From NCBI GenBank assembly GCA_964498325.1, contig CAZCHF010000016.1, forward strand, positions 1-52,442: DNA of 52,442 bases, written 5' to 3'. Position 1 is the stretch's first letter. Every line of letters begins with the position of its first letter. Both the position numbers and the translations under genes were made by a program. Shown piece by piece: positions 25,151 to 28,399 of this stretch. The stretch comes from an uncultured Candidatus Kuenenia sp. (lineage in GTDB: Bacteria; Planctomycetota; Planctomycetia; Pirellulales; UBA1268). Under the pieces are notes generated by a model. It did no database searches and had not been told where the DNA came from. It saw only the letters and a list, made by a program, of their open reading frames with translations.

Positions 25151-27280
25151 ATGCTACTCCACGAATGTGCGCGCGGACATCAGTGGCAGGGTTCGGAAAG
25201 CGCCGATGACGTTTGCCCGAACTGCGGCGCTCCCGCCGAGACGGTTCGAATGGCCGGAAACAACCTGGAGACCAGCCCTCATGTCACCGGACCAGGCAAT
25301 GAGCCGGCCGAGACGATCGCGGGCGACTCGGTCCCGGCCGGATCGACCGGAGTCCCCGTATCCTTCCCGAAGCTCGAAGGATATGTCATCGAGAAAGAAC
25401 TCGGCCGGGGCGGCATGGGCGTTGTGTACAAGGCGAAGCACCTCAAGCTCGAGCGGTCGGTCGCCATCAAAATGATCCTGGGGGCCGCCGCGGCAGACCC
25501 GGAGTATCGCCATCGCTTCCAGATCGAAGTACGGGCCGTTGCCCAGTTGCAGCACCCCAACGTCGTGCAGATCTTCGAGGTCGGTGAGCATGAGGGGCAA
25601 CCGTACTCGGCCTTCGAGTTTCTCGAAGGGGGCAGTCTCGACGACAAATACAAGGGCAAGCCACAACCGTTCCGTGAAGCGGCGAAACTCATCGAGACGC
25701 TGGCCCGCGGCATTCACGCTGCCCACGAACAGCGCATCGTCCATCGCGATCTCAAGCCGGCCAACATCCTTTTCACCAAGGACGGCACGGCCAAGATCTC
25801 CGACTTCGGCCTCGCCAAGCGGGTCGATTCGGATATCGGCAAAACCCAGACCGGCATGATCATGGGCACGCCGGGCTACATGGCCCCCGAGCAGGCTTCA
25901 GGCCACACCAATCTCATCGGTCCTCCTGCCGACATCTACGCCCTTGGTGCCATGCTCTACGAGCTTTTGACCGGGAGGCCGCCGTTTGTTGCCAACACTG
26001 GATGGGACGTCATCAGCAAGGTCGTCTCCGAGGAGCCGCGTCCGCCATCGACACTTCGCCGTCAGGTGCCGCGCGACCTGGAAACGATCTGTCTCAAGTG
26101 CCTCGAGAAGTCGCCGGATCGCCGCTACTCCAGTGCCGCGGGGCTGGCCGACGAGCTTCGCTCCTTCCTCGACGGCGACTCGATCCAAGCTCGCCCGGTG
26201 GGCCGTCTCGAACGCACGCTGCGATGGGCTCGGCGGAATCCCGGCCTGGCTTCCGCCGTTGCCACGATGCTCGTTGCCGTCGGCGTGTTCGGCGGCGCAT
26301 TCGCGGTCATTCGGAACGCCACGGCCGGCCACGGCGCACCGTTCGTCGTCAACACGCCGCTCGGCCTGCCGCCGGTGACCGTGCCGGGCGACAACCCGCT
26401 CACCGTGGAGAAAGTGTCCCTTGGCGAGCAGCTCTTCTTCGATCCTCGGCTCTCGAAGGACAACTCCGTGAGCTGCGCGACGTGCCACGTGCCGTCGAAC
26501 GGCTACGGCGATGGGCTGGACACCAGCGTCGGCATCGGAGGGCAGAAGGTGAGTCGCAACTCGCCGACGATCGTCAATAGCGCGTACTGGCATCAGCTCT
26601 TCTGGGACGGTCGGGCGCACAGCCTCGAAGAACAGGCCCTGGGCCCGCTATTCAATCCGGCCGAGATGGGACTGTCCCGCCACACCGAGCTCGAGGAAAG
26701 ACTCAACGCCATTCCTGGATACCGAAAGCAGTTTCAGGCGGTCTTCCGAACTGACGTGACGACACACAACGTCGCCAAAGCGATCGCCGCCTTCGAACGG
26801 ACGCTCGTGGCGGGCAACGCACCTTTCGATCGCTTCAAGGCGGGCGATGAGTCCGCACTGTCCGAGCAAGCCCAGCGTGGCTTGAAGCTATTCTTGAACA
26901 AAGCGCATTGCAGCGCCTGCCATGTAGGGCCCTCGTTCAGCGACGGCGGCTACCACAACCTCGGCGTCAGCATCGACACCGATAATCCCGATATCGGTCG
27001 GCAAGCGGAGCACAACCTGCTCGGCAATCGCGGCGCCTTCAAAACCCCTTCGCTCCGCGACATCGCCCGCTCCGCGCCCTATATGCACGACGGGAGCATT
27101 GCGACCCTCGAGGAGGTCGTGGAGTTCTACAACAGGGGGGGCACGCCAAACGCCCAGCTCGACGAGGAGATCTTCCCGCTCAACCTCACCGACCAAGAGA
27201 AGCAAGACCTGGTCACGTTCCTGAAAGAAGGGCTCACCAGTGACGACTATCCCGAGATCCAGCCCCCGAAACTGCCCTAG
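25151..27280 (+). CDS. Transmembrane Ser/Thr protein kinase (Hanks-type) with N-terminal zinc-ribbon-like segment and a C-terminal periplasmic di-heme cytochrome c peroxidase (CCP/MauG-family) domain
   Basis: Kinase motifs [35 protein letters not shown]. One TM helix ([22 protein letters not shown], ~26243-26310). Two CxxCH heme sites (CATCH ~26473-26487, CSACH ~26909-26923). CCP signatures FWDGRA and [20 protein letters not shown]. The first ATG is at 25151; the listed 25145 is a TTG. Confidence 0.85.
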   Translation: [709 protein letters not shown]

Positions 27281-27298
27281 CACCCCGAGACATCCCTC

Positions 27299-28399
27299 GT
27301 GAAAAGAGCCTTCACTTCACGCCGCTGCCTGGCCGCCGGATTCATACTGGCATGCCTATACCTGGGCGGCTGCGGGAGATCGAACGACACCCCCGCGTCC
27401 ACAGGCCGCGATCAGGCGGGGGCCCAGGGCACCAGGGCGATCGCGGATGAATTCGTCGAGCCCGAATTCGTCGTCGGGGGGCTCGTCAACCCGAGCGGCA
27501 TCGCCATCCAGCCCGGCAGCAACCACATCTTCGTCGCCTCGAAGAACGGCGTAGCCCGCATCGTTCCGGGCGAGAATGCGGTCCTCCACGACGAGATCGT
27601 CGGCTTTCCTACCGACGAGTACGGCAAGGGGCCGGCGTACGAGCTTGGCCCGCTTGGCCTTGCCTTCCTGGACGACACAACGCTCGTCGTTGGCGACGGC
27701 AGCCTCCCAGACGGTGAAGAACTCGTGCGGCTCTACGACGTCGGTGCCGAGCCGCTGCCCGTCGACAAAGTCAAAGATGCCGATGAAATGCGCGCGTCGG
27801 CCGGGCCGATCACGCCCGATCCCGACGTCTCCGTGAATGGCGAAGGTAACTTCTACGGCGTTGCCGTGCTCGGCAACGACATCTTTGTCACCGGCAATGG
27901 CGACGACACAAAAGGCTGGATCAGCAGGGTCAGGTATGAGAGAGACTCGAAACTCGAGCTCGAACCGTTTATTGCGACGAAAGTTGCCACCGAGACCGAT
28001 GCCCCGGCGGGCATCACCACGAGGGACGGCCAGCTCGTGGTGAGCCAGCTCGGTGAGGTGACGACGCACAACGCCGACAGCCTGCTCGCGTTCTATGATC
28101 CGGGTAAGGGCAATATCCTCGAGAATCGGACTGTCGGCCTCAAGGACGTGTGTGGCATCGCCTACAGCCCGAGGACTGACAAGCTCTACGCGGTCGATTT
28201 TTCTTGGTCGGACGCCTCGGCTGGCGGGCTCTATCGCCTCGACATCGAGGCTGACACGGTGCAGGTGACTCGCATCGCCAAGCTCGATCGGCCCACGGCA
28301 CTCGCCTTCGCCCCCGACGGCACGCTCTACGTCACCCTGATCGGCACCGCTCACCAAGACAGCAAGCCAGGCCAGGTCATCACCTTCAAGGGCCTTTGA
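27299..28399 (+). CDS. Lipoprotein with beta-propeller-like (NHL/SMP-30-like) repeats
   Basis: Lipobox ILACLYLGGCG. Repeated G-x-A/x-I/V-D blade-like segments (PSGIAIQPGSNHIFVA, FYGVAVLGNDIFVTG, GIAYSPRTDKLYAVD, ALAFAPDGTLYVT). GTG start 18 nt after the kinase stop. Confidence 0.65.
   Translation: MKRAFTSRRCLAAGFILACLYLGGCGRSNDTPASTGRDQAGAQGTRAIADEFVEPEFVVGGLVNPSGIAIQPGSNHIFVASKNGVARIVPGENAVLHDEIVGFPTDEYGKGPAYELGPLGLAFLDDTTLVVGDGSLPDGEELVRLYDVGAEPLPVDKVKDADEMRASAGPITPDPDVSVNGEGNFYGVAVLGNDIFVTGNGDDTKGWISRVRYERDSKLELEPFIATKVATETDAPAGITTRDGQLVVSQLGEVTTHNADSLLAFYDPGKGNILENRTVGLKDVCGIAYSPRTDKLYAVDFSWSDASAGGLYRLDIEADTVQVTRIAKLDRPTALAFAPDGTLYVTLIGTAHQDSKPGQVITFKGL

Follow-up and report, generated by a model that had tools for sequence, protein, structure and literature searches.

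We analysed a 52,442-nucleotide stretch of DNA (contig CAZCHF010000016.1, assigned to an uncultured Candidatus Kuenenia sp. of the Planctomycetota; G+C about 64%), here called the window, and describe two adjacent genes on its forward strand. The first is an uninterrupted open reading frame (ORF) for a receptor serine/threonine kinase with a predicted periplasmic di-heme domain related to cytochrome c peroxidases (CCPs), hereafter the kinase-CCP gene, and the second encodes a putative lipoprotein with a beta-propeller fold (Table 1). Read from the TTG at 25145 the kinase-CCP protein has 711 amino acids, and its length is 709-711 depending on the start chosen; the ATG at 25151, two codons further on, is probably the true start, since the 94%-identical homologue P0001 begins at the same ATG. 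Residue numbers are counted from the TTG. Pfam placed Pkinase at residues 80-332 (E 1.7e-53; score 182 bits, cut-off 31.7) and CCP_MauG (PF03150) at 422-569 (E 2.6e-59; score 200.6 bits, cut-off 25.6), followed at 577-694 by a match of cytochrome c type. Hydropathy analysis showed residues 366-390 to be the sole hydrophobic segment, with RWARR just before it, and AlphaFold2 (AF2) joined the confidently folded kinase to the heme domain by one long helix (354-393). Covalent heme attachment requires that a domain be exported; together with the positive-inside rule, this places the kinase in the cytoplasm and the hemes outside it. The domain order, the topology and the intact kinase that an earlier sequence-only reading of the window had proposed were thus borne out by Pfam, hydropathy and AF2, and all the motifs it had quoted lay at the expected places. 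Its zinc-ribbon-like N-terminal motif was present as CxxC/CxxxH...CxxC in 13 of the 21 family members that we aligned and is for that reason regarded as accessory; AF2 modelled a small beta ribbon at residues 1-36 with a predicted local distance difference test score of 70-78, and metal binding is putative.

Table 1. Features of the kinase-CCP gene and its partner in the window, with two examples of the peroxiredoxin genes found at other loci (the latter in coordinates of their own loci).
Feature	Position	Strand	Evidence
Receptor Ser/Thr kinase gene with periplasmic di-heme domain	25145..27280	+	ORF list, Pfam, 21-sequence alignment
Zinc-ribbon-like N-terminal motif, Cys8-x3-His12 ... Cys24-x2-Cys27	25166..25225	+	Alignment, AF2
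Hanks-type kinase domain, residues 80-332	25382..26140	+	Pfam, alignment, PDB matches
Single transmembrane (TM) helix, residues 366-390, RWARR on the cytoplasmic side	26240..26314	+	Hydropathy, AF2
Periplasmic di-heme CCP_MauG-superfamily domain, residues 400-711, predicted MauG/MbnH-type	26342..27277	+	Pfam, PDB matches, clade
Heme 1 site CATCH (Cys444, Cys447, His448)	26474..26488	+	Invariant; aligns with the first CxxCH of bacterial CCPs
Heme 2 site CSACH (Cys589, Cys592, His593)	26909..26923	+	Invariant in alignments
Tyr662, predicted sixth ligand of heme 2	27128..27130	+	Aligned with MauG Tyr294
Partner gene: 366-residue putative lipoprotein (lipobox LGGC, Cys25), six-bladed NHL/SGL-type beta-propeller	27299..28399	+	
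Peroxiredoxin gene at locus L107	5963-6556		
Peroxiredoxin gene at locus L103	5996-6862		

In the family alignment of 21 homologues (49-94% identity), the invariant positions of the kinase domain included GRGGMG (87-92), Lys109, Glu128, HRDLKPxN (200-207, HRDLKPAN in the window protein), DFG (220-222), APE (247-249) and the subdomain XI Arg (Arg327). The closest PDB matches were PknB and PknA of M. tuberculosis, and also Stk1 and StkP of Firmicutes, at 33-36% identity and template modelling scores (TM-scores) of 0.86-0.90. The TQT of the activation loop (234-236) was aligned with the TQT of the PknB loop, and Leu102 with the Leu of the PknB segment DLRLHRD, both being conserved in the family; we take these PknB residues to be the phospho-acceptors Thr171 and Thr173 and the N-lobe dimer residue Leu33. 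Judged from these residues, the domain is an RD kinase of the PknB type with all catalytic residues intact. The established activation model of such kinases is dimerisation with autophosphorylation of the loop, and the window kinase would be expected, as a member of the family, to follow it.

The heme domain combined features of several CCP_MauG proteins. At full length its nearest PDB matches were classic CCPs (3o5c, 3.6e-57, against 1.7e-46 for MbnH 6e1c and about 1e-30 for MauG), with about 40-45% identity across about 290 residues. When it was aligned with 3o5c, 1iqc and 4aal, no counterpart of the Met ligand of classic CCPs was found, as the segment concerned faced a Met-free insertion; the conserved Met of this segment in the three structures is presumably the sixth ligand of the C-terminal heme. 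The motif of the C-terminal heme pocket aligned best with MbnH (PYMHDGSVATLEEVIDIYSEGG) and MauG (PYMHNG...ILFYNK), bringing Tyr662 (EFYNRGG) onto Tyr294 of MauG (ILFYNK) and the motif IYSEGG of MbnH. This Tyr was invariant in alignments of all kinase-fused and propeller-partnered CCPs, and Tyr294 of MauG is a known axial heme ligand (PMC6405878). The distal His of activatable CCPs was absent from the alignment as well; its position was taken by Ile464 (GIGGQ), which aligned with a Gly of the MacA variant chain 4aao and was I/V/T in the kinase-fused set and V/F/I in the propeller-partnered set. Both CxxCH sites were invariant among the 21 homologues, as were Asn478, Trp487, Gln497, Pro501, His648 and Tyr662, and CATCH was invariant in all 136 CCP domains of a wider alignment. 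Glu507 was conserved in at least 90% of the 21 homologues and, in the wider alignment, did not vary among the nine kinase-fused CCP domains. We assigned Gln497, Pro501 and Glu507 to the distal peroxide-activating set, Trp487 to the inter-heme position and Asn478 to the Ca site, and by homology heme 1 (CATCH) would be the peroxide-reacting, open five-coordinate heme.

Altogether, the alignments indicate that the domain is a MauG/MbnH-type (His/Tyr) member of the CCP_MauG superfamily and not a classic cytochrome c peroxidase. The canonical His/Met enzyme was rejected as an identity, given that neither the Met ligand nor the distal His is present, and so were MauG proper (TIGR03791; 284 bits against a cut-off of 443.85) and MbnH proper (TIGR04039; 249.8 against 362.85). 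The sequence-only reading had called the domain a cytochrome c peroxidase: the CCP_MauG fold, the two CxxCH sites and the quoted motifs held, while the enzyme identity gave way to a His/Tyr ligand set by alignment. MauG-type proteins use H2O2 as an oxidant via bis-Fe(IV), have poor dye peroxidase activity and are set apart from detoxifying peroxidases (PMC11892367, PMC6405878). A simple reading of a peroxidase used as a sensor is therefore too narrow for a domain of the MauG/MbnH type.

The fusion of kinase and heme domain was conserved. A search of 5.8 billion proteins returned about 30 clusters (90% identity) carrying PF00069 and PF03150 along the full length, at 49-94% identity, from JGI, ENA, NCBI and Logan assemblies. 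Gemmataceae (P0003) was the sole organism name on any of these clusters, and the nearest genome match was a 'Pirellulales' metagenome-assembled genome (L001, 89% identity). With clustering at 50% identity, at least six of the top 150 relatives of the heme domain were kinase-fused (P0249, P0251, P0254, P0255, P0268 and the longer P0277). The sequence-only reading had raised a frameshift between the two halves as a possible objection, but the same continuous layout in some 30 independent clusters, and in at least six representatives at 50% identity, establishes them as one gene. Moreover, the TM helix stands in for the signal peptide exactly where the mature standalone CCP begins. The chance that a sequencing or assembly error joined separate kinase and CCP genes is thus negligible. 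In the homologue P0035 (797 amino acids) a long N-terminal extension replaced the zinc ribbon, and an extra C-terminal hydrophobic helix lay past the heme domain, like the first hydrophobic segment of the protein P0238 described below. Separately, several kinase-only proteins of 840-1050 amino acids (for example P0013, P0019 and P0020) reached about 800 bits in HMMER, equal to true fusions, without a CCP domain and without a reported BLASTP alignment; repeated or compositionally biased matches are a possible cause.

In the partner protein, MKRAFTSRRCLAAGFILACLYLGGC matched the L-x-G-C pattern by eye; many members of the propeller family carry a plain signal peptide or an N-terminal anchor instead of a lipobox. 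Its fold was that of a six-bladed propeller. No Pfam match, NHL and SGL included, was obtained on it at E <= 0.01, its homologues gave only faint NHL/SGL matches, and the ScyD/ScyE family (NF033206) was rejected at 43.8 bits against a cut-off of 80. An alignment of 28 sequences at 44-90% identity contained 43 invariant columns, including Trp207 (NGDDTKGW), Trp303 (DFSW) and many acidic residues. The family comprised 1069 matches at E <= 1e-5, and all the named ones were Planctomycetota.

The propeller gene lay directly 3' of the kinase-CCP gene in seven of nine kinase-CCP lineages (the window, L001, L002, L081/82, L085, L086 and L087/88; 48-78% identity). The cultured Maioricimonas rarisocia has it behind a standalone CCP_MauG gene that encodes 339 amino acids with a signal peptide. 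We then scanned metagenomes with the propeller alignment and obtained 80 loci, 53 of which had at least 1.3 kb of upstream sequence. A CCP gene stood directly upstream on the same strand in 42 of these 53 loci (24 of 32 lineages at 80% identity), and a kinase was found at only one of them. These gene orders indicate that the propeller is the conserved, ancestral partner of the whole CCP clade, mostly without a kinase, and that the sensor is probably the pair of di-heme domain and propeller. The sequence-only reading had put forward the propeller as a possible periplasmic partner of the kinase; the conserved adjacency agrees with this, and the wording was an understatement, the partnership extending to the entire clade. 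A physical partnership is also suggested by P0238 (L091, 1-1748), in which one continuous ORF runs from the C-terminal half of a CCP through two hydrophobic segments to the propeller, with a topology that would hold both domains in the periplasm; its N-terminus ends at the contig edge, and a kinase further upstream is possible. P0356 (1443 amino acids; M16_C, CCP and NHL) was rejected as a second Rosetta-stone fusion, as its NHL part is not specifically related to the window propeller (BLASTP E 0.021), and is by its sequence matches only a generic co-occurrence of CCP and NHL.

Close relatives of the window heme domain were also found in other large fusions, namely tandem CCP with CN_hydrolase (about 1100-1200 amino acids), Laminin_G_3 with CCP and EF-hand with CCP (P0241-P0258, P0311-P0350, P0378), and Peptidase_M16_C with CCP, the last with NHL repeats in P0356. 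It appears that di-heme domains of the MauG type have been reused widely as a module.

A neighbour-joining tree of 136 CCP domains was used to place the fusion. The 42 propeller-partnered CCPs were monophyletic; joined with the kinase-fused ones they made up a clade that had 52 leaves and a single outsider, L020, which is truncated on its downstream flank. The window heme domain was 56-65% identical to propeller-partnered CCPs (median 60%) and 36-57% identical to other CCPs (median 46%). Standalone CCPs carry cleavable-looking signal peptides, and their mature start, PLGLPxVxVPxDNPxT, matches the stretch right behind the TM helix of the kinase. The simplest history is that a kinase with its TM segment was substituted for the signal peptide of a di-heme protein that was secreted and partnered with the propeller. 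Such secreted proteins are widespread in Planctomycetota, and the kinase-fused form is a minority lineage.

Beyond the propeller, no neighbour was common to the kinase-CCP loci, and L001 (89% identity) had none of the genes that flank the unit in the window. Judged from gene order, the conserved unit is therefore two genes, kinase-CCP and propeller. The sequence-only reading had envisaged a conserved triplet; the association was retained, but in two genes. The upstream PQQ_2/BamB-like propeller (23487-24959) was rejected as a member because it is not conserved, and a DinB_2 gene behind the propeller was rejected as a third conserved gene because it occurs only in the closely related P0004/P0005 lineages. 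At 21 kinase-less loci from at least four lineages (36-95% identity; within L092-L171), an AhpC/TSA peroxiredoxin gene lay directly 3' of the propeller. This gene order gives a three-gene module of di-heme protein, NHL propeller and peroxiredoxin and places it in a peroxide context.

Taken together, the reading we favour, at about an even chance (probability around 0.5), is that the kinase-CCP protein and its propeller form a unit that signals the peroxide or redox state of the periplasm to a PknB-like kinase in the cytoplasm. H2O2 or a related oxidant would react at the open heme, and the resulting high-valent or redox state, or an altered contact with the propeller, could make the periplasmic domain change its conformation or its oligomeric state. 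The kinase domains might then pair and trans-autophosphorylate on the TQT loop, and phosphorylation of cytoplasmic targets would follow. The step from peroxide to phosphorylation is suggested only indirectly, by the intact peroxide-activating residues and by the peroxiredoxin genes beside the related kinase-less modules.

Several observations weigh against this signalling unit. The peroxiredoxin neighbour occurred at no kinase-fused locus, the window included, and no peroxiredoxin gene was present elsewhere in the window. No substrate, phosphatase or regulator was conserved near the kinase-CCP loci, and the adjacent propeller was missing in two of the nine lineages (L083/84 and L089). The clade was derived from a distance tree without support values, and the other CCPs compared with the window domain had been gathered with patterns taken from the window protein itself. 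In the full-length AF2 model the confidence for the heme domain was low, so that the ligand geometry is that of the sequence alignment alone. Finally, MauG-type enzymes oxidise a protein substrate with H2O2 rather than detoxify it (PMC11892367), which means that the heme domain could be an enzyme first and a sensor second.

This last point leads to an alternative that we consider unlikely though worth serious attention, namely that the heme domain is a kinase-tethered enzyme, either a MauG-like oxidase that modifies the propeller, for instance by forming a Trp- or Tyr-derived cofactor or cross-link, or a membrane-anchored peroxidase, while the kinase reports a maturation step or answers an unrelated cytoplasmic cue. 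The aligned His/Tyr ligand set, as in MauG, MbnH and BthA, would suit such an enzyme, known MauG-type enzymes act on adjacently encoded partners (MauG on preMADH, MbnH on MbnP; PMC11892367), and both the strict pairing of the CCP and propeller genes and the invariant Trp207, Trp303 and acidic residues of the propeller are consistent with it. However, the domain fell under the curated MauG and MbnH cut-offs, no modification of the propeller is known, the peroxiredoxin neighbours suggest peroxide handling rather than cofactor biogenesis, and the role of a mere anchor would hardly explain an RD kinase that is intact, conserved and equipped with a TQT loop. A further reading is that an H2O2-driven MauG-like oxidase installs a Trp- or Tyr-derived modification or cofactor in the propeller and that, in the kinase-fused lineage, the Hanks kinase directly reads the state of this periplasmic oxidation; we regard this combination as distinctly improbable, but if true, the signalling input would be an enzyme-catalysed protein modification outside the cytoplasm.

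The propeller might alternatively be the true sensor of a ligand, a small molecule or an envelope component, with the di-heme domain as a docking platform that is perhaps redox-gated. PknD of M. tuberculosis presumably binds such a ligand with its NHL propeller, and the very high conservation of the window propeller family (43 invariant columns in 28 sequences) and its conserved pairing would be accounted for, but a passive platform would have no need of the conserved heme-binding and peroxide-activating residues, and the occurrence of the pair mostly without a kinase implies that its primary role is not signalling. We hold this explanation to be rather unlikely. Least probable among the functional readings, and in our view quite doubtful, is that the molecule sensed at the open heme is not peroxide but, for instance, nitric oxide (NO), hydroxylamine, sulfide or O2. 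A weak C-terminal similarity to hydrazine synthase gamma, which handles NO and NH2OH (PMC12758564), points in this direction, but it was limited to residues 631-694 and to 46.7 bits against a cut-off of 625. The inter-heme Trp is retained as in peroxidases and MauG, where hydrazine synthase gamma has a His (PMC12758564), and the distal Gln/Pro/Glu residues, which typify H2O2 activation, are invariant. A further point in its favour is the propeller-less kinase-CCP gene at L083 (P0006), which lies just upstream of a cluster (8482-13391) of ArsR-like, rhodanese/YgaP-like, TauE, metallo-beta-lactamase-rhodanese and Pyr_redox_2 genes that looks like one for sulfide or persulfide handling.

Planctomycetota commonly have receptor Hanks kinases whose outer domains resemble enzymes; sulfatase-modifying-factor, DJ-1, isochorismatase and PQQ domains have been listed among others (Table S7, PMC11032199). 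The same table of this 2024 survey, which covers 49 genomes, has a single entry for 'Di-haem cytochrome c peroxidase', by column count in strain Pan189, and the words 'peroxidase', 'cytochrome', 'CCP' and 'heme' are all absent from the main text. A literature search, outside which most subscription journals lay, yielded no description or test of a Hanks kinase of heme-c or CCP type and no report of a CCP-NHL gene pair or operon. The earlier statement that no such architecture had been characterised therefore stands as to characterisation, with the addition that the architecture had been tabulated without discussion (Table S7, PMC11032199). It fits a known theme of Planctomycetota receptor kinases.

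Gemmataceae encode roughly 100 or more receptor Ser/Thr kinases per genome (PMC11032199), and almost no Planctomycetota receptor Ser/Thr kinase has a known input signal. The input domain of the window kinase has a well-understood chemistry (two-heme H2O2 activation), a ligand set that can be read from the sequence and an identifiable partner, which makes its signal directly testable. If the proposed signalling is confirmed, no other heme-c enzyme domain would have been shown before it to drive a Hanks kinase, and the small MauG-type group, for most of which the physiological substrates are not known, would gain a member. The kinase-less module of di-heme protein and NHL propeller, with or without peroxiredoxin, is widespread in Planctomycetota, and the kinase-fused form would offer a handle on its function.

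Other genes of the window were examined as to their association with the unit. The FHA-domain sigma54 activator (14250-16193) that the sequence-only reading had named as a conceivable phospho-Thr-dependent downstream target is a real protein, yet it stood beside no other kinase-CCP locus, the flanks spanning 5-6 kb and the distance in the window being 9 kb; the link thus found no support. None of the other kinase-CCP loci had the activator, the PQQ propeller, the FtsX/ABC genes or the MscS gene in its flanks. The activator, of FHA-GAF-sigma54-HTH_8 architecture, fills only part of a 1224-residue ORF with a GTG start (12519-16193, +), and a DUF1598 protein is encoded on the opposite strand at 12750-14096, so the longer ORF is probably an over-extension due to the high G+C content. 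The PQQ_2/BamB-like gene at 23487-24959 (+) has a paralogue 11 kb away at 11331-12743 (-), 55% identical over 438 amino acids; neither is conserved beside the kinase-CCP gene elsewhere, and a PQQ_2 gene also occurred near the CCP-propeller fusion in L091. Upstream of the unit lie genes for an ABC ATPase and a long FtsX-type permease (MacB/LolCDE-like; 20219-23547, +), and a 46%-identical ABC ATPase gene was found near the unit in the P0018 lineage (L087/L088, 8509-9222, -), quite possibly by coincidence. Downstream, a gene for an MscS-type channel with a long N-terminal extension (28501-30390, -) converges on the propeller gene, with the stops about 100 nt apart, and is followed by a gene for a DUF6655 protein (30444-31313, +); neither is conserved with the unit.

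Compared with known systems, the window kinase resembles PknB, PknA, PknD, Stk1 and StkP in being single-pass with an N-terminal cytoplasmic kinase, and it shares with PknB the RD kinase type, the TQT loop and a Leu at the Leu33 position. It differs in having a di-heme c domain outside the membrane, where kinases of the PknB/PknA/PknD type have PASTA repeats or a propeller, and in its added N-terminal zinc-ribbon-like motif. The extracellular sensor of PknD is itself a six-bladed NHL propeller, the fold of the window partner; in PknD it is part of the kinase, whereas in the window it is a separate putative lipoprotein. With MauG, MbnH and BthA the heme domain has in common, as far as alignment can tell, the CCP_MauG fold, the two CxxCH sites, the aligned Tyr, an open heme without a distal His, the inter-heme Trp, the Gln/Pro/Glu set and a specific partner encoded alongside. 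It departs from MauG and MbnH in that the partner is an NHL propeller instead of preMADH or MbnP, that the domain is kinase-fused, and that its overall sequence is nearer to classic CCPs and under the equivalog cut-offs. The classic CCPs of Shewanella (3O5C), Nitrosomonas (1IQC) and Pseudomonas (1EB7) have the same heme sites, Ca-site Asn, Trp and PYxHDG motif, but they are soluble periplasmic proteins with a Met ligand and, in activatable enzymes, a distal His, where the window domain lacks the Met ligand and has Ile or Val for the His.

Hydrazine synthase gamma of anammox Planctomycetota is also a CCP/MauG-like di-heme protein that works with propeller subunits (PMC12758564); apart from the low and local match reported above, it has a His for the Trp and a bis-His second heme, the propeller of the beta subunit is seven-bladed, and there is no kinase. 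Human NHLRC2 and plant SOQ1 fuse a thioredoxin-like domain to NHL and contain no heme protein, whereas the peroxiredoxin module consists of separate genes and includes a di-heme partner. Heme serves as a signalling input in FixL, DosS/DosT, the periplasmic c-type-heme PAS sensors of Geobacter and the chemoreceptors of Desulfovibrio, and the Geobacter and Desulfovibrio sensors carry covalent c-type heme on the periplasmic side. In these sensors one heme sits in a PAS or GAF fold that is coupled to His kinases or methyl-accepting chemotaxis proteins, whereas in the window protein an entire enzyme fold with two hemes would be coupled to a Hanks Ser/Thr kinase.

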